DNA of 64,000 bases from an uncultured Acidimicrobiaceae bacterium (GTDB lineage: Bacteria > Actinomycetota > Acidimicrobiia > Acidimicrobiales > Bog-793): assembly GCA_963725215.1 (NCBI GenBank), contig CAVRXQ010000002.1, positions 400,205 through 464,204 of the forward strand. Reading direction: 5' to 3'. Shown here piece by piece: positions 10,461 through 23,400 of this stretch; within the stretch, counting starts at the first letter, position 1, and every line of letters starts with the position of its first letter. Made by a program: the position numbers and the translations under genes. The notes under the pieces were generated by a model. The model did not search any database. It saw only the letters and a list, made by a program, of their open reading frames with translations, and had not been told where the DNA came from.

Positions 10461-11009
10461 TCACATGCGGAAGTAGTCGGCTCCGGGATTGATCGGATGC
10501 ACACTACGAAGGTGTCGGCCCGCACTTGTGATTGACGAGACGATGCCCGACGCGTCAGACGCCGAAACATAGCCCGCGGCCACGGCGTCCCGGAGAATGT
10601 GCACCGTGTCGATCACTCGACCAACGCTGAGGCGCCGCTCGGCGAAGTCGTACGCGGCGTTGTCGTCCGTCGCGACCAAGCCGCCGAGCTTTTCCGCAAA
10701 GTAAATACATTGCGCCTCGCCGGCGTGCCTGATCGGGGGCCGGCGACCGTCGTTGAGTCCGATCCAGATTCGCACGATGCGCTGTTGATCCGCGATCGTG
10801 GGCAACACAGAGCTTCCGAGCCAGTGGCAGGTCAATATGGCGAGGCACCCGGGCCATCCGGCGGCGTCACCGCGCCTGATCTCCGCCTCTACTTCTTCGG
10901 TCCAACGCGGCGCGTCCCGCCAGCCATGCACTTGTTCCAGGATTCCGAGGCGACCGCAGACCGCGAAATGGCACAGAGTGACCGCGTCGAACAGCACAGG
11001 GCGAGACAC
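10461..11009 (-). CDS. PIN-domain protein (DUF3368/VapC-like)
   Basis: N-terminal VLFDA, EVEAEI, AGEAQCI, ATDD acidic pattern; starts 9 nt after the HTH-ImmA gene. Confidence 0.75.
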   Translation of the reverse strand: MSRPVLFDAVTLCHFAVCGRLGILEQVHGWRDAPRWTEEVEAEIRRGDAAGWPGCLAILTCHWLGSSVLPTIADQQRIVRIWIGLNDGRRPPIRHAGEAQCIYFAEKLGGLVATDDNAAYDFAERRLSVGRVIDTVHILRDAVAAGYVSASDASGIVSSITSAGRHLRSVHPINPGADYFRM

Positions 11010-11018
11010 GCAACGTCC

Positions 11019-12218
11019 TTACACCGGACTACCGCTAAACCGTTCTACGTCGGTCGTCGCTTGATCCGCCCGCTCTTCGTAATCCTCTTCGAGGACTTCG
11101 GTGGCATCTTTTTCCATGATCGCCATGCGTACCAATAGGTCGTCCGGATCGACGCCCAGAAGACCTGCGAGCGGCCGGACGCTCAGCACTCCCTGGCGGT
11201 AGCCGGCGAACGCACGGACAGTGAGCCACTCAGGGGGGCGCTGCTCGGGTCGAGTGCCCAACCGGCCAAGCAACGTTCGTGCCTTCTCGTCATCCCCGAT
11301 CGCCGCGAGCACTCCGCGCCACCCAAGGGCCCGCATTTGATCCCGCCCACGCACGTTGATCAAACCGAGATTATGCAGTCGGTATACGAGCGACTCGAAA
11401 CTGACGCCGAACTTGTCGACCATTCGTGCCAGCGAGTGGGCCGTTCTACCCGATCGTTCGATTTCGGAACGGATCTCTTCCTCTGGCATCAGAAAGCTGG
11501 CGGCGAAAGCGTTGGCAAAACGCTCGCGATCGGTGTGAGCGGTGAGGTCGATATCGAGAGTCAACACCTCGCCCTGCCCCGACAAGACGTGCGCCAACTC
11601 GTGAGCGAGCGTGAACAGCGATCGAGTCGTTGGCTGCGCCGCGTTGACAAAGATCAACGGGAACGATCGATCAGTGATTGACGCGCCGGCGAGATGGTCG
11701 CTCGAATGCTCCTCGACGAGCACGTCCACACGGAATCTCTCTTCGATGGCCGCCACAAGAGCCGAGAACCGATCTTCCCCCTCTGCCGCCACCTTCAGTT
11801 GATGATTCGTCCAAGCGGCCAATTCGGTAGCGGAAGCCATCCATTCCGATTCGTCCACTTCCGGTACGTCGTCCAGTTGTGGTTGAGCGGGGATTCCTTC
11901 CTCCGACAACAACTGATGCAACTCCGTCAGAGCGGTCAGACGATCGAAGGCAGGGCTTTCGACGATCGCTCCCAATTCGGCGCGGGGCGCAACCGGGAGC
12001 CGAGCCAACAAGGAATCTTCATCAAGGATCGCGAGCGGCGAGACGTTGAGAGCGTCGGCGATCAGTGCAAGCTCTTCGGTTTTGAGCGCTCGCTTACCCC
12101 GCTCAATGTTCGACATCGCGTCGGGGTCGAGCCCAACGCGAGCGGCGAGTTCCTGAGACTGCAGACCAGCCCGTTCACGGAGCACGCGCACCCACGCGCC
12201 GACAGCGGCGGCGTCCAC
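11019..12218 (-). CDS. XRE-family HTH fused to ImmA/IrrE (DUF955) metallopeptidase
   Basis: LRERAGLQSQELAARVGLDPDAMSNIERGKR HTH; FTLAHELAH HExxH; ERFANAFAASFLMP; likely GTG start at 12218. Confidence 0.9.
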   Translation of the reverse strand: MDAAAVGAWVRVLRERAGLQSQELAARVGLDPDAMSNIERGKRALKTEELALIADALNVSPLAILDEDSLLARLPVAPRAELGAIVESPAFDRLTALTELHQLLSEEGIPAQPQLDDVPEVDESEWMASATELAAWTNHQLKVAAEGEDRFSALVAAIEERFRVDVLVEEHSSDHLAGASITDRSFPLIFVNAAQPTTRSLFTLAHELAHVLSGQGEVLTLDIDLTAHTDRERFANAFAASFLMPEEEIRSEIERSGRTAHSLARMVDKFGVSFESLVYRLHNLGLINVRGRDQMRALGWRGVLAAIGDDEKARTLLGRLGTRPEQRPPEWLTVRAFAGYRQGVLSVRPLAGLLGVDPDDLLVRMAIMEKDATEVLEEDYEERADQATTDVERFSGSPV

Positions 12219-12225
12219 TAAGCCG

Positions 12226-12310
12226 AGGTTACGCGGAGATTGCGATTTTTGCAACCTCTCAATTGCGATTATCACAAGTCAATGATACCATGAAGTTGTG
12301 ATTTCACCAA
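12226..12310. promoter_or_regulatory. back-to-back promoters with three 15-bp TTG-N9-CAA operator-like boxes
   Basis: boxes TTGCGATTTTTGCAA 12240-12254, TTGCGATTATCACAA 12263-12277, TTGTGATTTCACCAA 12296-12310; + promoter TTGCGA(12263)-17-TACCAT(12286) with TG extension; - promoter TTGCAA(12254)-17-TAACCT(12231). Confidence 0.7.
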
Positions 12311-12330: not shown

Positions 12331-12585
12331 ATGAACCAGAGCGAAACCCAGGAGGTCGAGGCACCCGAACGTCGAGACGTCAACGTCTTCATCGACGACA
12401 AGAAATACGTCTTCGAGCAGGACGACGTCACCGGTCTACAGATCAAGCAGAAGGCCGGCATCCCCGACGACTACTCCCTGTACCTCCGAAAGCCCGGCGG
12501 AAACGAGCCCATCCGCGACGACGAGCCAGTTGAGCTGCGCGATGGAGAGCACTTCTTCTCCCGCCCGCCTTCCAACGTGTCGTGA
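12331..12585 (+). CDS. multiubiquitin-type ubiquitin-like (beta-grasp) protein
   Basis: RBS AAAGGAGG then ATG 12331; VNVFIDDKKY..VTGLQIKQKAGIP.DYSLY...I.DDE.V.LRDGEHFFS pattern typical of Multi_ubiq; upstream of E2 and E1 genes. Confidence 0.8.
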   Translation: MNQSETQEVEAPERRDVNVFIDDKKYVFEQDDVTGLQIKQKAGIPDDYSLYLRKPGGNEPIRDDEPVELRDGEHFFSRPPSNVS

Positions 12586-12956
12586 CCGAGGAGGAGTTCG
12601 AGGCGGGTGTTGCTGCGGTTCAGCGCGAGTACGCCGAAACACGCGTGCTGAGCCGAGAAGGCACCACGCGTCCGCTTCGAGTAGCGCCCATCCCGATCCC
12701 CACCGACTTCTGGGGAGGCGGTACGACTCGCCTCCTCGTGGTCTTCGACCTCGCAACTCACGAATCGCAGCGGCCACCCGGCTTCCTCGGCGACGAATGG
12801 AAACTGCCCGGCGGCGGCGCCCCCGTGAACGCGCAGCCCTCCTACCAGTTCGGCGAGGCGTGGCAGACCTACTCGTGGACATTCCGGTGGCCACCGGCGC
12901 TCAGCGTCCTGCAAACCGTCGAGGCGTACCTAGGCCGGTTCGATGACCACCGTTGA
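12582..12956 (+). CDS. prokaryotic E2-like protein (Prok-E2 family E-like), no cysteine
   Basis: GTGA overlap with Ubl stop; PIP..W...TTRLLV, PPGF, G.AWQTYSW..W pattern; 124 aa between Ubl and E1. Confidence 0.6.
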   Translation: MTEEEFEAGVAAVQREYAETRVLSREGTTRPLRVAPIPIPTDFWGGGTTRLLVVFDLATHESQRPPGFLGDEWKLPGGGAPVNAQPSYQFGEAWQTYSWTFRWPPALSVLQTVEAYLGRFDDHR

Positions 12957-14316
12957 TCTTCGTGTTCCAGGCGATGTGCAGCGCACGATGTTCACCGACT
13001 TGACGCGTGATCGCGAGTGGGCGGGCTACCTCATGTGCGGTGTGCACCAAGGTTCGGGTCACGACCTGCTTCTCGGCCGTGCCTGGCACCCCGTGCCGCC
13101 GAAGATGCAGATCACGGGCACCCGCCACGGATTCAGTTGGCACTCCGACTTCGACGTTGAGATGCTCAACCTCGCTCAGCGCGACAACCTCGCATGTGCC
13201 GTCTTTCACTACCACGGGGGCGCACGGCCATCGCTCGGGCATACCAGCGACCGCCAAACCGCCAACTCGCTCATGCCCTTTCTCTCCCGCGAGGCTCCCG
13301 ACCGGCCCCACGTCTTCGGTGTCCTCGGCGATCATGCGGCCACCGGGCTGGTCTTTCGTGACGGCGCCGAAGTCGGCTCGCTCTCCTCGTTCCGCGTAAG
13401 CACGCAATGCATCGACGACTGGAGTACGGGATCGACTCTTCCTCGGATCAGGAGTGACGGCGAACGTCACGATCGTTTGATCCGAGGGTTCGGGCCCCAT
13501 GCACACGAGCGCCTGCGTCGAACAACGGTCGGGCTCGTGGGGTGTGGAGGCGGAGGCTCTCATGTCGTCCAACAGCTCGCCTATCTCGGCGTCGGGTCGC
13601 TCCTTCTCGTCGATGCCGACATCGTCGAGACCTCCAACCTCAACCGCCTCATTGGCGCTCATCCCGCTCGCGCGAGCCGCTCACTCGTCGCCCGACTCCT
13701 TGGCCGTGGACGCGGGGACGTCGGATTGCCAAAGGTGACGGTCATGCAACGCATGGTCAACGCCATCGACGAGACGATCGACGTCACCTGCATCCAAGAG
13801 GCATTTCCCACCACCTCGACCGTCGAGGCTCTACGGCGCGTCGATATTCTCGTCGCCTGCCTCGACAAGTTGAGCGTCCGAGACGACCTCAACCGCCTCG
13901 CGAAGCGCTATCTCATCCCGCTCGTTGACATCGGCATCGAGATCACGCCAGATCCAGCCAAACCCGGCAGCATCTACGCGGTTCCGGGCCGGATCACCAA
14001 AGTCCTCGCCGACGGCCCATGCCTTCGCTGCCAAGGAGTGATCGACGAGAGCAAGTTGGAGCGCGAGCGAGGCGGACGCCCCAGAGGGTACGAGGGACCG
14101 GCTCGACTTCCTGACCCCGCCGTCGTCACCCTGAACGGGATTGTCGCGTCGATAGCCGCGACCGAGGTTCTCCGACTCATCACGAGCTTCGAGATCGAGC
14201 GCACCCCGAATTGTGGCTGGCTCTACGACGGGCTAACGGGTGCTATCGAAGGTGTGACCAAACGCTACGACGCTTCCCGAATTTGCGAGGTCGATCGAGG
14301 AGCAGGGGATCCGTGA
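12943..14316 (+). CDS. JAB-like domain fused to ThiF/E1 adenylation domain
   Basis: N-terminal REWAGY...HYH..S....SD JAB-like motif; GCGGGGS, DADIVETSNLNR, CLD, D.G, CLRC, PAVVTLNG ThiF motifs. Confidence 0.85.
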   Translation: MTTVDLRVPGDVQRTMFTDLTRDREWAGYLMCGVHQGSGHDLLLGRAWHPVPPKMQITGTRHGFSWHSDFDVEMLNLAQRDNLACAVFHYHGGARPSLGHTSDRQTANSLMPFLSREAPDRPHVFGVLGDHAATGLVFRDGAEVGSLSSFRVSTQCIDDWSTGSTLPRIRSDGERHDRLIRGFGPHAHERLRRTTVGLVGCGGGGSHVVQQLAYLGVGSLLLVDADIVETSNLNRLIGAHPARASRSLVARLLGRGRGDVGLPKVTVMQRMVNAIDETIDVTCIQEAFPTTSTVEALRRVDILVACLDKLSVRDDLNRLAKRYLIPLVDIGIEITPDPAKPGSIYAVPGRITKVLADGPCLRCQGVIDESKLERERGGRPRGYEGPARLPDPAVVTLNGIVASIAATEVLRLITSFEIERTPNCGWLYDGLTGAIEGVTKRYDASRICEVDRGAGDP

Positions 14317-14463: not shown

Positions 14464-17400
14464 CTACTCGAAGTCTTGGCTCTTCGCTCCAAGCTGTTGA
14501 GCGTTCTCACCGACGACCCGCCTGACACGTTCGTCGAAGCGAGACGACGAAGCATTGATTTCGAGCGTCATTTCGACCGACCCGCCTGGAGCCTCGGCCA
14601 AATGTTGCACAACGTTGCGCAAGATCTCCTCCAACTGCCGGATCCCACGCACTGTGTCGAGTGGAAAACGACCGTAGAAGAATGTCGGATCGCCCGCAGT
14701 GTCCGCACCGAACAAATCGGATGGCGTCGATGCCGTACCGTCGGCGGCAACGCCAGATCCACGCTCATTCGATGACGGAGCGCCATCGCGCGCCTCGGAA
14801 TCTCGGGTGAGTTGCTCGCTCGCCGCATCAGGCGCCACGACGACCCCGCTCTTGCTGGCCGTCACGAGTTGAGCTGTGGCAAGCCCGACCCATCGAGATC
14901 CATCGAACACGTCCGCGTAGGCAAAGGTTTCGAGCTCCCAATCAATCTTCGCGACTCCGTCCGAGATCGCACGGGCCAAAACATCGAACGAAGCCAAGAC
15001 GCGGAAGGTAAAGGAACTGGCAGTAGGCCTTCCACAGTGCATCGACAGCGATATCGTGCCGCTCCGTCCATAGCGGGATGCGATCGAGATCCATCCGCAC
15101 ACGGGTTCCCCCGTAATGGTGATGAGGCGTTCTTCGCATTCGAGCTTCTTCGCAATCCGCTCGGCCAGAATTCCAACTCCGGTCGGTTTGGTCTGGTGCC
15201 AGCGGATCTCCCGGGTTCCCGGGGTCTGTTCCGGTACGAGAACGTGTTGGTAGGTCTCGGCGATCCGGTGGGTGACGGTCTCAGCGGTCTCGGAGAGCTT
15301 GGAGTCGCCTGGGCTTCGTCGCTGCGGTCAGTTCGAGCTTCTGTGTTGTGGTCGTCGAGGATCGACTTCCACGCGAAGTACTGGCGAGCGGCGGTGCGCA
15401 GCTCGGCGAGCCGTGCCTCTGATGCGGCGCTGAACACGAGCATGTTGCGGTTCAACCGAGGACCGGCGTTTCGTTGACAAAGGATTGATCGGCCATCGCG
15501 ATAGCCGGGGACTCATCCACGTTCGGAACGTGATGAGCTGTGGCTGGAAGCACAACGAGGTGTACGCCGTCGTCGTCGTCGGTGACGTCACCTGGACCGT
15601 CAGGGAAGGCGTGCACAGCGGCGAAGGGTCCGGGCGAGTCCGCCTTCTGCAGCCGCCGTTTGATCTCATCGTCGGCGTTGTCATCGGTGAAGTTGGAGAT
15701 GGCCCGATCGGCGGCGAGGCGCGTGATGTTTGCGCGCAGCGAGTACCAGTACTGGGCACCGTCGACGTAGAGGTAGGTGGCATCGCCGGAGAGTCGACGC
15801 AGTGCATCGGCGAAGGTGCCCGGCGCTTCGCCGGGCTGGGCAACACCGAGCGTGATCAGCTTGAGGTCGATACCACGCCGAGCCTCCTCTCGGGGTGCGG
15901 AGGCAAGGTAGACAGCACGAGCAACGCGGCGGGTGGCGGAATAGCGGCCGAGATTGGTGTTGTGCTGGTCGAGATGCAACGGAAGTGCGTTCGCGCCGTC
16001 GATGTCGGTGCGGATCACGGGGTCCCAGCCATCTTCGAGGTACTTGGTGAGTTCGGAGTTCACCTCGGGTCGTCCATCGGGATCGTGCCCGGCATGATCA
16101 GCAGGTTCTGGTCGCCCCGTTGCCACAGCACGGAGATCACCGTCGCCATGAGCCGCAGCACACCGCGGGTTCGCTGGAAGCGATCGAGCGTGGACCAGTC
16201 CTTGTACAGCCGGTCGAAGAGCTCAGGGTGGATCGGATAGGAGAGCTCCATCCGTCGTCGATAGTCGCCATCGGCGACCTCGCTGGGAAAGTCGGCTTCG
16301 TTCTCTCGGTAGTAGTCACAGAACGCCTTGATCACGCCGTCACGGACCCGAGCGTTCTCCGGGGTCATCGGCTCGAACAGCCGCCGGCGAACGATCTCGA
16401 AGCTCTCGTCGTCTTCGGCTGGCTTCCATTGAGCAGAATTGCGACGAACGACGTTGCGGAGCCGTGCCAGGGCCTCCTGGCCCTTGTCGCCGCCGACCTC
16501 GATGTCACTCGCCGGGATTGACACCAGCACGACGACGTTGGGCACGGACGCTGCGGCTTCAGTGAGCGCTTGCGCGAACGTGAACTGGGTGTCGAAGTGT
16601 CCGCCCACGACCTGCGCCTCGGCCTCGCGGGACGGAAGCTGCGGGCATACCAACCCACTCATCGATCAGAACAATCGATGGGCCGGCCAGCCGGAAAAGG
16701 TCGATGAGTTTGTTACCGGGGTTCGACCCGAGAGGTCTTCCGCCTCGACGAGCTGGTAGCCCTCAAGCCCGCGAGTTGGTAGGCGATCTCTCCCCAGATC
16801 GTGTGGATCGCCGTGCCGTCAGGCTTCACCGAGGGTGAAGCTGCTGAAATCCACTGCCCCACGACGACCGCTCGCGCAATCTTGTCCGGCAGCGACAACT
16901 CGTGCTCGGCAAACAACTCGCCCATCCCTGGAAGCTCGGCAGCCTTCATGCCCGACGCCAGATGGTACAGCGCAATCATCGAGTGCGTCTTGCCGCCACC
17001 GAAGTTGGTCTGCAGGTCGATGACCGGGTCGCCGTCCTCGCCGCTCAACCGCCGTGCCGCCCCGATCAACAGTTCACGTAGACCGTTCGTGAGATACGTG
17101 CGGCCGAAGAACGCGACCGGATCCTGGTACTCCAGGTCCGCGTTACCCGTGGCTACCTGGTAGAGGTCAGCAGCAAACTCAGCTTGCTTCAAACGGCCAC
17201 TCGCCACATCAGCGTGGGGGGTGATGATTTCTCGCCAGGGCGTGAAGCCCTTGAGCGGCTCGCCCTCGGTTGGCCTCGCCGCCGTCTTGCGGCGTTCCGA
17301 TCGCGCCTGCTCATCGAACAGCTGGCGCTGCAGATCCCGCTTGAGACCCTGAACAATCCTCACCTGCTCCGCGGCGCTGAACGCCTCCAGAAGTCGCTCT

Positions 17401-17726
17401 GCCGTATCGAGCATCCGATATGTGTCATCGGTCGAGAACTGGCCCTGGTGCGCCCACTTGTTTCGCGCTTCACGCAGCTCGCTCGTGTAGCCGCGCTCGG
17501 ACTGACCCAACCGCTGCCGCCACACTTCCTGCCAAGTGTTCTGCATTGCCTTCAGCAGAAAGATCAGATCGTTCGGATCCGCTACGCCAACAGCGCCCCG
17601 ATCTCGGCCGTTCATCTCGTCGAGCCAGCCTGGCCCGTAGGCGGCCTTCCATGCCGCTTCGCAGACAGGACGGATACCATCGCGCACCGCGTCGAGCCCC
17701 CGACTTACTCGTTCGTTGTTAGGCAT
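14464..17726 (-). pseudogene. Swt1-like HEPN plus DUF499 ATPase, split by several frameshifts
   Basis: ELREARNKWAH; PWREIITPH.DV..G....AEFAADL; LQTNFGGGKTHSM Walker A; SYPIHPELFDRLY, FQRTRGVLRLMA; spread over ORFs 16713, 16060, 15452, 14862, 14464. Confidence 0.85.
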
Positions 17727-17748
17727 TACCACGGCGACACGCACTCCA

Positions 17749-20491
17749 TCAGAACAACGTCCCGATCTCGTCACGCACGCTCGGCGACGTCGCGGCGAGT
17801 TTCGTGATCTCGGGCCAGGCGGTGGCCAGCATGTTGTAGGCGCCTGCCTCGTCGGCCCATTTTTTACGATCGCAGACGCCATATAGAAGATAGGCAAGCT
17901 GTCGTGCCCGAGCACCGAGGCCGCCACCTAACCGTGCAAGTAGGCGTGCTGCTTCGACTTCGCTACGGTCGACAGCGCGAATCAAGTGCTGCGTCGTCTC
18001 CCAGACGGTAAGGCGCCGGTCGGTCGCCGGATCCCAGCCCTCAGGCAACTCGGAGCGCTCAACCAGCCGAACCTTGCCATCCCGGCTGACGACAACACCA
18101 GCCTCGACAACACCAGCGACGTCGTGTCTTTCGCACGTGCCAGGAGGTCTGCGTTTCCGAACGGACCTGGGTTATGGCCATATTGCTCAAACCAGGTGAG
18201 GCGAAACGGGTGTCCGCATCGAACTCTGATTCCTCGCCGCTCAGCGCCTCGGCCAGCACCTCATTGATTAGGCCCAGGGCCGAGCTGACTGTCATCGGTC
18301 TCCCGTCGGCCTCGACGACCTTCGCATATCTGGAGAAAATGGCAATGCCTGGGCCCATCGCCGATTGGGCGAGGTCGACAGGGGCAATGTTCTCGACCTG
18401 TAGCAATCGCACTGCCGGCTCAAGTTCGGTGCGCAATGCGCCAATGAACTCGCCCCTCGTGGCCATCGGAGCGGTTGTCACGCGTGGCCTACAGGTAAGG
18501 ACAACCGACGAGGCCAAGGAGTTTCGCCGAGCATTGCGAACCCCGCCGGTCATCTCGGTTCGGATGGGCCACGTCGCGGTAATGGCCAGTCCGGCATCGA
18601 GGACGCCCTCCAGGAACGTCTCCCATCCCGTCGACGTATGACCGTCATCGGTCGACTCCGTCGCCTTGAAGGCATAGAAGATGGATGCGGGGTAGCGAGG
18701 GTCAGATCGAGGGATTGCGGCACGGAAGACTCTCTTGATTCCGTTCTCGAAATGCTCCTTTGCCGCCTGTCGCCCTCCGAACCGATACTGGTCAGCAACC
18801 AACTCTTCTGTCTTTGGCGTCAAGATTGTTGCGAACTCATCCGGCCATATCGGCCCAAGAGTCCGTCGCATCCAGACGTAGAAGAAGTCGGAAATATCTG
18901 AATACGGAACGTTGTCGTAGTACGGGGGGTCAGTCGAGAGAACGAACCTCTCCACCTCGCCTATGCGTGCTTCCCGCGTCGCGCTCCGCGACGGTTGCAG
19001 TCGAGTTCATCGGCAGATGCAAGAGCGCCTTCGTGACCCAGTCGATTTGGCCACTCCAGCCACCTGTAGCCGTGGAGAACGGATTCGCCTCCGTGAATGC
19101 CCAGGTCATCTGGATGGTTTGCATGCGAAATAGGTGTTCCAGCGTCTCGCGCAAAGGGTGCCAGATTGAGAGGGAATTCCAACGACTGATCGCTCGATCG
19201 AGGACGAAGGCTAGGTACATGGTCACTGCCTCGGAGTAGGCAAGCGCTCCGTCGCCACCCGAAGCCAAGGGCAAACCAAGTTCCATCTCCCTTCGGGCGG
19301 CATCCGAAAGGATCACCTCCCTCAGTTCGTCTAACGATCGGCAAAAGGCGTCTATCGCCAGTCGTTGCCGCGGGAGAAAGAGCTTCCACCATTCGTCCAA
19401 GCCATATCTGGGTGTGCCCATGTATTGCGAGTGGGTCGACATGGCGCCTGTTGGGCGCCAGCAGTCTCGGGCATCAACTGCCGCTGCCTCCGAATCCGCG
19501 GGAGTCGGAGACAAATACACGCGACCGCGGGCGCCCTGCACGGCAACCGCGATGAGATGCTGTGTGAGGCGGCCGGCCATCCCCTCGCTCTTGATGTAAT
19601 CGTTCGGGATCGCGGCGCCGGTCGCAATGCAAGTTCCATTACCTCGGGCGATGGTCCCTGGGATCGGATTGCCGCCCTCACGGACGTGGTAGGTGATGTG
19701 ACCGTTTTCAATAACAGGCTCTACCCACACTGTCGGCCTTCCGGGCTTCTTGACGAGTGTCCAAGATCCGACCAGCGGGACATCCCCATTCCACGAGGGA
19801 TCAGGGGACTGCACTGCTCGCGCCCAGAACCATGCCAGTACGTCGCCGCCCCCATACGGTGAGGGCGGGTGGGGGTAAAGCTTCCCTACTTCGGCCTGTG
19901 CCATGTCACCCAGCTTCGATCCGTATGCCTCAACGTCTGCAGCAAGGCCGCTGGCACCCTCCCAATCCGCAAGCTGAGCCGGGACCTCTGGGTTGACCGG
20001 GGATCGCCCCGAGAATCGTTGGGGAACCTCAAGCATCGCCCGCTGGATCATGACTGCCACCGGGTTGAGATCCCCCGAATGCGTATCGAGTCCGAGGCGC
20101 ACGGCTTCGACGGGAATCGCGCCCCCCCTGCAAACGGGTCGAGGATTATGGGCAGGTCGCCATCGCAGGACTTCTCGATCTCGGCCCTCGCTTCGCTGAG
20201 GACGCGCTGGTCGTTCGACGCCTGCCAAGGCACAAGTCGTTCAAGGATGTCGAAGAGTCGTTTGCGCTCGACGAGCTGATCTTCTTGGGTGGGGAATCTG
20301 TCTGGATGAGATGAGGGATCATCCACGAGTGAGGCCCAAAGCACGGCACGTGCGGCAGCGAGCGGGCGCCTAGCCCACCACAAGTGCAGGGTTGACGGAT
20401 GACCGTGGCGGATCGACTTCTCTCGTGCCGACTCCTCGTTGATCTTCGCCAGTGGAAGCGCGACCTCGATGAGCTTCTTCTTGTAGGTCAT
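17749..20491 (-). pseudogene. DUF1156-family DNA adenine methyltransferase, frameshifted
   Basis: [44 protein letters not shown]; pieces 20048, 18930, 18059, 17749. Confidence 0.88.
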
Positions 20492-23400
20492 TGGGGCTCC
20501 ACGGCGAAGGGCATGAGTTCAGCGACATCGAGGGGCACGTAGGTCTGCGCAAAGTGCAGCTCGTATCTGTCGAACGGCCGAATGAAGTAGTTCACAGTCG
20601 GCTGGCCATGTGGCTCGTTCGGGACGCGCACGACGGCAAGGCGGAAGCGCTCCGGGTTCTGTTGCGCCTGGCGCACCTGGCGAGCACGAACCTTGATCTC
20701 CGGTGTGTCGGGCCGATGGCCCTTGACCTCGATCTGGTACACCCTGCCACTGCGGGGGTCTTCCGAAAGGATGTCGAATCCTGGGTTGTTGTGATCCTGT
20801 TCGACGGGGAAGCGGCCAAGGACTCTTTCGGCCGCCATGACCGCGGCGACCGCACGGCGGTCCGTTTCGACGATCACGTCGTAGTCGATCTCGCGAGGTT
20901 GTTCGCCGCGCAGGCGTTGGATCAGACCAATGGGAATGACGAGCGCCGCTGCCACGACCGTCGGCGCATGGTTGACGAGGTCGGCTTCGAGATCGAGTTC
21001 GCGAAGGCGGCGGGCTTTGCGAGCTTCGAGGTCGTCGGCGCGTTGACGAGCGCGGCCTGAGTTGAGGCGGGGTTTCTTGCCGTGAAGCTCCTGCTGCTTG
21101 AGTTCAGCCGCGCGGGCGTCCCAATAGCGGATCTCGCTGTTGAGGCGTTCTTCGACGGCGCGCCGTGTGCGTTCGATCCGGGTGCGTGTGATGTCGGCCA
21201 CCTCGGCGTAGTGGGGTGTGGCGAGGTTGGCAGTGGCCCAACTCCGACCGGTGAGATCAATGCCGTCATTCGCCCAGGTCGTGTCGAGACCGGAGAGAAG
21301 CTTGCTCGTGGTGTCGTCGAGGGGCTCATAGTTGAGATACGGCTCGGCGCCAGGATCGGTGATGGCGCCGTGCTCGGTGATCTCGACGAACTGGAACCGC
21401 CGGGACACGATCCTGCGGCCGCCCCGTTCAAGACGGCCGTCAGTGATGGCGTGTTCGAGATAGATGAGGGCGCGGACGGTGTCGCTGTCGTCAGTCGGGT
21501 CGATGAGCGTCGTGCCAGCAGGAAGGGTGGCGCCGTGCCGGTCGAGCGTGGGTCGCGATTAGTGCGTTGAGCAGCGGGTGCCCAGGGCTGAGCAATTCGG
21601 CTCGGGTCCCGGCTGGACCGATCGAGACGTACCCGGTGTCGAAAGTGACGCGTTCGTAAGCGTTTTGGAGAGGGCCACCGGCGGCGACTTCACCGGTCGC
21701 GGGAGCGAACGGTCGCGGGAATGCGGGTGATCTCGAACCGGCCCGTCTCGCGGGGTGCGATTCGTCCGCCGACGTCGTCGAGCGCGGCGCGGAAGAATGC
21801 TTCGATGAAGGCTGGTTGAAGCTTGCGGGAAAGCGCTTCTTCCATTCGGTGGCGGATCTCGGTGATGCTCGACGGGTCGAGCACGTTCGTGGCCAGCGCG
21901 CGTTCATCGAGGACTGTCTTCAGCCGGTCGCCGATCTGCGAGTCGATGACCTCGTCGACGCGGCGATGACGGCCGGGTCCTTGCCGTACTGGATGGCTTC
22001 GAGGAGCAGCTCCTGTAGCGACCGATTGATCTCGGCGTCGCCGAGAATGTCGTAAACCTGATCCCCGTACGTCTCGCGTTGTGTTTCGATCTTAGCGAAG
22101 AGCCTCTCGAACACAACACCCTCTCTGGTGCCATGGGCTACGAGGTTCCAGAGGTGACAGACCTGTTCCTGGCCGATGCGGTGGATACGTCCGAAACGCT
22201 GTTCGATCCGATTCGGATTCCATGGCAGGTCGTAGTTCACCATCAAGTTCGCGCGCTGCAGGTTGACACCCTCGCCGGCGGCGTCGGTTGCGACGAGCAC
22301 CTTGACCGCCGGGTCGTTGCGGAACGCGTCCTGTATCCGGCGACGGTCCTCGCGCTCTTATGCCACCATGAATCGTCACGACTGCTTCGGGCTTGCCGAG
22401 CAGAGTGCGGATGCGCCCTTCCAAGTAGTTGACGGTGTCTCGGTGCTCGCTGAAGACGATCAGCTTGGTGGGATCGCCAGGAGCGTTGAATACGTCGGAT
22501 TGAAGGATCGTGCGCAGCTCAACCCACTTGCGGTCCTCCCCCGAGGCACGCACATCGGCGGCAAGGTCTTCGAGGAGTCGCAGTTCCGCGACCTCGCGCT
22601 CGGAGTTCTGCGATCGACTCGGCAGTCATTGCGCTCTCGATGGCTTCGTCTTCGAGGTTCTCAAACTCCTCATCGTCGAAGTCGTCAACATCGAAGCCGT
22701 CCGGATCGGCAAGACGTCCTCCGACGCGTTGCACCTCGGCAATTTCTCCGGAGCGTTGGGCATCGCTGAGCTGTTTGATGAGCTTGTCCTTGCGGCGCCG
22801 CAATGACTGGTAGATCGCCTCGGGTGACGACGCGAGCCGACGCTGCAGCGCAATGAGCGCGAATCCAACTGCGAGCCCACGGCGCCTGTCGCCACCATCT
22901 TGCATCGCCTGCGCCCGACCCATCCCTTCTCGCACGTAGTCGGTCACTGCTTCATAAAGGCGTTCTTCCAAGTCACTGAGGTCGTAATCACGGTCTTGGC
23001 GACGCGTCGGGGAACAGGCGCTTGCCCTCGAACGTGAGGAGGTTCTCCTTCACGTACCGGCGCATGATGTCGGAGACGTCGGGAACCTTGGCGGCGTGGC
23101 GCAGCCGCCCCGCGAAACGGTCGGGGTCGAGAACGAGAGGAACAACAGGAAGTCCTCGTTGCTGCCGCTGTGCGGCGTCGCAGTTAGCAGCAACAGATTG
23201 CGGGCGTGATCACGCAGCAGTTCACCGAGCGAGAAGCGCAGCGTCCGTGTGACCTCGTCGCCGTAAAGATGTGCCGACATCTTGTGTGCTTCGTCAACGA
23301 CCACGAGGTCCCAATCCGTGACACGCGAACTTCGCTTGGAGGTCTTCGCCTCTGGACAGTTGATCGAGTCGTGCGATCAGCAGGTTCTCTCTCGATGAAG

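Follow-up and report, generated by a model that had tools for sequence, protein, structure and literature searches.

The ubiquitin-like protein (Ubl) of this locus ended in serine in place of the usual glycine and, judged from sequence comparison, this end is real, conserved and coupled to an intact Bub-like machinery. The three-gene operon that carries it is likely a variant of the cysteine-free Bub pathway, neither a mutation nor a wholly new system. By the usual teaching, nearly all ubiquitin-like tags end in Gly. The window (the whole stretch of 64,000 nucleotides that was analysed) held the following features.

10461-11009, minus strand: 182-aa gene behind the HTH-M78 regulator (no Pfam match)
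11019-12275, minus strand: divergent HTH and IrrE/M78 peptidase fusion, likely a CapH/CapP-like regulator (Pfam, PADLOC)
12331-12585, plus strand: single-domain multi-ubiquitin-type Ubl (BubA-like), 84 aa (ORF translation, PF14452, homologues)
12553-12582, plus strand: last strand and tail of the Ubl, F75-S84, FFSRPPSNVS (register alignment, predicted E1 interface)
12582-12956, plus strand: cysteine-free E2 (BubB-like), 124 aa (family alignment, model, fold match)
12943-14316, plus strand: JAB peptidase-E1 fusion (BubCD-like), 457 aa (Pfam, BubCD match, 95-sequence alignment)
14464-22300, minus strand: Hma system with HmaA helicase, HmaB methylase and HmaC ATPase (PADLOC)

The serine end and its conservation

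The ATG of the Ubl at 12331 was preceded by AGGAGG, a Shine-Dalgarno-like sequence, and the translated reading frame ended in HFFSRPPSNVS followed by a stop. The Ser84 codon was TCG (12580-12582), and the TGA stop (12583-12585) overlapped the GTG start of the E2 gene at 12582. The final Gly of the Ubl, G72, lay N-terminal to the last strand, and its sole GG (G56-G57) was inside KPGGNE. The translation thus bore out the original prediction that the protein ends in PPSNVS with no C-terminal Gly, that its only GG is internal and that its stop overlaps the next start. Pfam Multi_ubiq (PF14452) matched residues 18-76 at 7.3e-10, above the cut-off. The C-terminal Gly-Gly of ThiS/MoaD-type sulfur carriers was absent from the Ubl, which was not one of the four PF02597 matches in the host genome. 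A sigma-70 promoter search at the operon gave no match, and there was no RNA run among the listed public runs containing the stretch.

The chance that Ser84 arose by private mutation or by an error in the sequence is practically nil; the homologues, their two codon sets and a contig from a second study all refute it. This run contig spanned 12544-12802 without gaps and with a single differing letter, at 12641; its Ser codon and stop were identical, which ruled out an assembly error. A private mutation or a chance serine was ruled out by the aligned C-termini of the homologues. RPPSNVS closed 20 of the 21 close-family proteins (query counted; the remaining one runs on), so the close homologues do not all end in Gly and, with the second contig in agreement, the earlier judgement that a truncation is improbable was sound. 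Ser was also the last residue at 48 of the 60 related loci with a readable stop, out of 63 examined (2 genomic and 61 metagenomic, some of them near-duplicates, one spurious genome match excluded), three of which ran off the contig; the patterns used to find these loci omitted the last residue of the Ubl, one profile in the homologue search had Ser in its final column, giving a slight Ser bias, and an alignment set picked for Ser ends (A4) was excluded from the counts. Among the 48, the serine codon was AGY in 27 and TCN in 21, and since no single base change connects the two sets, selection on the amino acid is indicated. Gene overlap was rejected as the cause of the serine because it constrains the codon at its third base alone. 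A GGA or GGG (Gly) codon would give the identical overlap, and in AGY-coded relatives the E2 start is separate from the Ubl stop.

The terminal Ser was kept in Ubls down to about 30% identity. Among the best 150 cluster representatives, 56 ended in Ser and 21 in Gly; for the 72 representatives ending no more than two residues from the register, the counts were 44 and 14, respectively. Ser84 lay nine residues past F75, the same spacing as that of Gly in FYAVPPATFG-type kin, and Ser and Gly ends could be paired in register (PPGTIS with PPGTFG, PSGNVS with PPGNFG). In ubiquitin, L67 and G76 are separated by the same nine residues.

Neighbouring genes were compared at the 55 loci with at least 250 bases downstream. 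With an E2 or E1 neighbour, 43 of 49 loci were Ser-ended, 5 were Gly-type (a label assigned by position, in some cases to an internal Gly in register) and 1 had Ser plus one residue. Without such a neighbour, five of six loci had lost the Ser and one had kept it, two of these six orphans being the same protein. The Ser end is tied to the conjugation machinery. The orphan Ubl relatives (L018, L019, L020, L023, L024 and many cluster representatives), with degenerate tails and no E2 or E1 downstream, form a family of lone beta-grasp proteins. Two further arrangements were seen: a Ser-type Ubl-E2 fusion (P0068) with the junction ...RDGSS-ADH, and a Ubl ending in PTPAS-R (L058:4902-5174). Together they suggest cleavage after Ser by certain JABs.

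The E2 and the JAB-E1 fusion

The E2 held no Cys. Its Ser98 (12873-12875) was invariant (39/39) and was the sole invariant residue in the E2 alignment. Thr100 occupied the Ser+2 site of the type I BubB His, so that the motif reads S-x-T/N against S-x-H; His at this site was found in none of 33 Ser-type E2s versus 5 of 6 Gly-type E2s. The E2 model built from 39 sequences reached a pLDDT of 93, and its top fold match was BubB (9eav; Z 11.9, rmsd 2.9 A, 119 aligned); a model from the single sequence (pLDDT 54) was not used. Foldseek with the E2 model gave no match at E 0.001 or better, with BubB as its top row, and no PADLOC model covered the Ubl or the E2.

The best PDB match of the JAB-E1 was Citrobacter BubCD (4.9e-19, residues 24-422, both domains). 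The fusion carried the JAB residues E25/H89/H91/D103, the adenylation residues R178, D224, R235 and K264, the crossover Tyr383 and a GCGGGG P-loop that includes G204. H89, H91, D103, R178, D224, R235, K264 and Y383 were invariant in all 95 aligned E1s, taken from 120 listed homologues, and a Cys within the crossover loop was present in 1/95. In the alignment, Y383 corresponded to BubCD Y370 and R235 to BubCD R227. The query JAB motif showed a one-residue insertion and lacked the S-x-x-D serine, as did 21 of the 95, and Ser445 replaced a Cys present in 88 of them. These JAB-motif and zinc-site departures, together with the fragmented Hma genes adjoining, could mean that the family works as proposed while the query copy is decaying or inactive. 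The likelihood of this is remote, as all three operon genes were intact and of family length, and relatives carried the same departures. An archaeal JAB-E1 of like kind was observed on a Natrinema plasmid (L076), behind small genes, one of them with GRIFG and a short tail.

The predicted E1-Ubl complex scored 0.84, with 0.17 for the best control. The 0.84 mark was attained by 116 of 157 solved pairs and by 2 of 215 mismatched ones; these figures apply only approximately to E1-Ubl, where own alignments were used and ATP/Mg was added. The runs shared at least 94% of contacts, with a partner pLDDT of at least 89. The predicted interface included the Ubl tail 78-84 and the E1 P-loop residues 200 and 202-205. 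S81 faced E1 331/348/349, and the model output left the E1 partner of Ser84 unnamed. Since a BubCD-BubA complex is already solved, the prediction shows likeness and not binding.

Comparison with Bub and activation of Ser84

The reference for type I Bub (6E.1) is the BubAB-BubCD-BubE operon of Citrobacter sp. RHBSTW-00271 with its structures PDB 9EA4/9EA8/9EAE/9EAV; in the available preprint text, the E1 adenylates the Ubl, which passes by a Tyr oxyester to the E2 Ser and on to Lys conjugates (Ye et al., bioRxiv 10.1101/2024.11.21.623953). The query operon shares with it the JAB-E1 fusion, the crossover Tyr, the lack of a catalytic Cys, a Ser E2 of the same fold, a multi-ubiquitin-type Ubl and a CapH/CapP-like regulator. 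Its Ubl and E2 lie on separate genes, as in some type I operons listed in the accessible part of that source. Unlike type I, the query Ubl ends in Ser and not Gly, the E2s of its branch have S-x-T/N in place of S-x-H, the P-loop is GxGGGG in place of GxxGTG, and there is no BubE. BubE (DUF6527, PF20137) had no match in the window or in the host genome (90% complete), and among loci with at least 1 kb downstream it was present in 0/18 of the Ser-type versus 9/12 of the Gly-type. On its gene content and motifs the operon is a branch of type I Bub without BubE and the E2 His. As three type I features (E2 His, Ubl Gly and BubE) are missing, we set it beside type I and not as a member. In the Gly-type Bub operons L078, L079, L081, L083 and L086, a phosphotransferase or hypothetical gene stood between E1 and BubE.

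The type II reference (6E.2) is E. coli ZDHYS365 BubA-BubBD-BubE (PDB 9CD2). According to the portion of the preprint available, N-terminally tagged type II BubA yielded an apparent, ATP-dependent BubA-BubA conjugate when BubBD and ATP were the only additions. The conjugate was lost in R219A, Y342F and S106A and not on K108 mutation; it is a band in a supplementary figure, called 'apparent' there (10.1101/2024.11.21.623953). This BubA (222 aa) ends in FYVTQTDKS with no Gly in the tail, and all eight type II BubAs fetched were Ser-ended. Neither 'C-terminal serine' nor 'S222' had a match in the accessible text of Ye et al. (10.1101/2024.11.21.623953), and activation of a Ser-ended Ubl was likely already achieved with type II BubA, unremarked in that text. 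No discussion of bacterial Ubls that end in Ser came up in the literature search; the journal articles by Ye, Gong and Chambers et al. may discuss the serine. Like type II, the query has a Ser-ended Ubl with a Gly-free tail, Tyr and Ser oxyester residues and no His at E2 Ser+2. It differs in that type II fuses E2 to E1, lacks JAB and has BubE, whereas the query E2 is separate and JAB is fused to E1.

Among other bacterial systems, the Cap2 of type II CBASS is likewise an E1 for a non-Gly terminus, in its case Ala. Cap2 accepts a Gly or Ala terminus, and in the text available a Gly-to-Ser change left Cap2 unable to form the thioester or to conjugate (Jenson et al. 2023, PMC10097602). As Cap2 takes Gly or Ala and not Ser, a real specificity shift is implied for the query. 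Cap2 also differs from it in using Cys thioesters and a CD-NTase substrate that is not beta-grasp. The ISG15-like Bil systems have the same gene set of Ubl, E2, JAB and E1 but, as described in the accessible parts of two Corbett preprints, use catalytic cysteines, and the query E2 and the crossover loop of the query E1 are both free of Cys.

The E1 probably adenylates Ser84 untrimmed; on the model of Bub, the tag would then be carried through oxyesters of Tyr and Ser and end on lysines. The Ubl would be made with its terminal Ser where the usual Gly sits, and the JAB-E1 would adenylate the Ser84 carboxylate directly. The tag would move to E1 Tyr383 and then to E2 Ser98, and the end product would be a seryl-lysine isopeptide on target proteins. 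Because there would be no precursor to process, JAB would mainly remove the tag, a job that BubE may do elsewhere. We infer the chemical steps, the acceptor and any stress or antiphage role by analogy with Bub. Ser84 is most likely the residue activated by the E1. Against this stand the rejection of Gly-to-Ser by Cap2 and a precedent conjugate that is 'apparent' and comes from a distant E1 lineage; further counterpoints are the E2 without the type I His and the departures of the query JAB motif and Ser445 from the family.

The original prediction was that the E1 may adenylate either the C-terminal Ser or a residue exposed by trimming. The first part stood, as the Ser is conserved and in the Gly register. 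The second found no support, as the Ser holds the Gly register and a relative ending in Ser underwent conjugation in vitro with no peptidase added. Trimming by JAB, with activation of an internal residue such as position 81, is highly improbable. The JAB zinc ligands are invariant, and many distant Ser-ended Ubls carry Gly at position 81 (e.g., PPGTIS), but Gly or Ala also stands there in Gly-ended Ubls (PPGTFG, PPATFG), three residues before the activated Gly. Position 81 is Ser in the query clade and pairs with the E1 in the predicted complex. The disposable tails of Gly-type kin vary (G-I, G-A, G-HGNH) whereas the query-type tail is fixed, and type II Bub has no JAB. The new activation specificity that had been proposed is not supported in the strong sense, given the Ser-ended type II BubA conjugate and the acceptance of Ala by Cap2.

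Hub1/UBL5 is an example of a non-covalently acting Ubl. That the query Ubl likewise binds the E1 or another partner and is never conjugated is very unlikely: a binding tail could be conserved too, and Gly-to-Ser abolishes conjugation in another bacterial E1 system, but the ATP-site residues, Tyr383 and E2 Ser98 are all invariant and Ser-ended type II BubA undergoes conjugation. It is also unlikely that Ser84 is adenylated while the acceptor is a lipid, small amine or hydroxyl in place of a protein lysine, or that the tag stays on the enzymes. Neither BubE nor the E2 His is present in the branch, and the preprint, in the text available, reports no natural Bub target or phenotype (10.1101/2024.11.21.623953). 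However, type I Bub formed a product that depended on Lys and numerous conjugates in E. coli, according to the same text (10.1101/2024.11.21.623953), and the E2 fold and its Ser are retained here.

Conjugation through Ser84 could also mark a BubE-less third Bub branch co-evolved with its serine, a reading that we regard as rather doubtful. Replacement of Thr by Gly204 in the E1 P-loop would have removed a side chain and made room for Ser, and the terminal hydroxyl of the tag would substitute for the missing E2 His in substrate-assisted catalysis. If so, seryl-lysine links would lie outside the reach of Gly-specific E1s and peptidases, and Gly-remnant proteomics would not see them. The P-loop residue was Gly in 19/19 Ser-type E1s outside type II and Thr or Leu in 13/13 Gly-type E1s. 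Gly204 as a general need for Ser was rejected, since 8/8 type II E1s keep Thr despite Ser-ended tags. In the E1 tree, which excluded near-duplicates and loci lacking a read Ubl and was unrooted, with the direction of change unassigned, type II E1s formed a separate long branch (100/100). Of the Gly-loop E1s, 18 rows grouped at 88/94 and the full 19 at 50/58, which makes them one lineage or two; the covariation of Gly204 with Ser thus amounts to about one event, and Gly204 is at most this branch's own solution to Ser. Alphaproteobacterial four-gene plasmid operons, with three-domain Ubls ending in GQSS, GHSS or GGSS, nested inside the branch (99/97) and showed the same traits as the query branch.

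Setting of the operon and meaning

The divergent HTH-M78 fusion matched capP (6.7e-21), capH (1.9e-6) and RmrA (2.7e-23), and the related locus L007 had the same regulator layout. The 182-aa gene behind the regulator was also kept beside it in L007, had only a weak PADLOC match (PDC-S70) and is, as we take it, PIN-like in appearance. Three TTGYGATT copies (12240, 12263 and 12296; span 12240-12303) around the divergent starts are possible operator sites. The Hma locus lay head-on downstream of the operon with each gene split over several ORFs, through either decay or indels in the assembly. The flanking regulator and Hma locus would fit a defence or stress role; in the preprint text available, phage protection is reported for no Bub operon (10.1101/2024.11.21.623953). 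Sulfur carriers with a Gly-Gly end and a second E1 of the ThiF family were also present in the host genome (L099, L102), and the Ser end could insulate the tag from them.

The impact of the finding is tempered by the Ser-ended type II BubA, which the available preprint text in effect already shows conjugated in vitro. With Ser in the Gly position across a wide family, the Gly rule can be put to a direct test using three small proteins and a handful of point mutants. If the proposed activation is true, the E1-E2 pair would be orthogonal to Gly-ended tags, its conjugates would be missed by Gly-remnant proteomics, and the operons would add a Bub branch that a census of Bub operons keyed to DUF6527 omits by construction.
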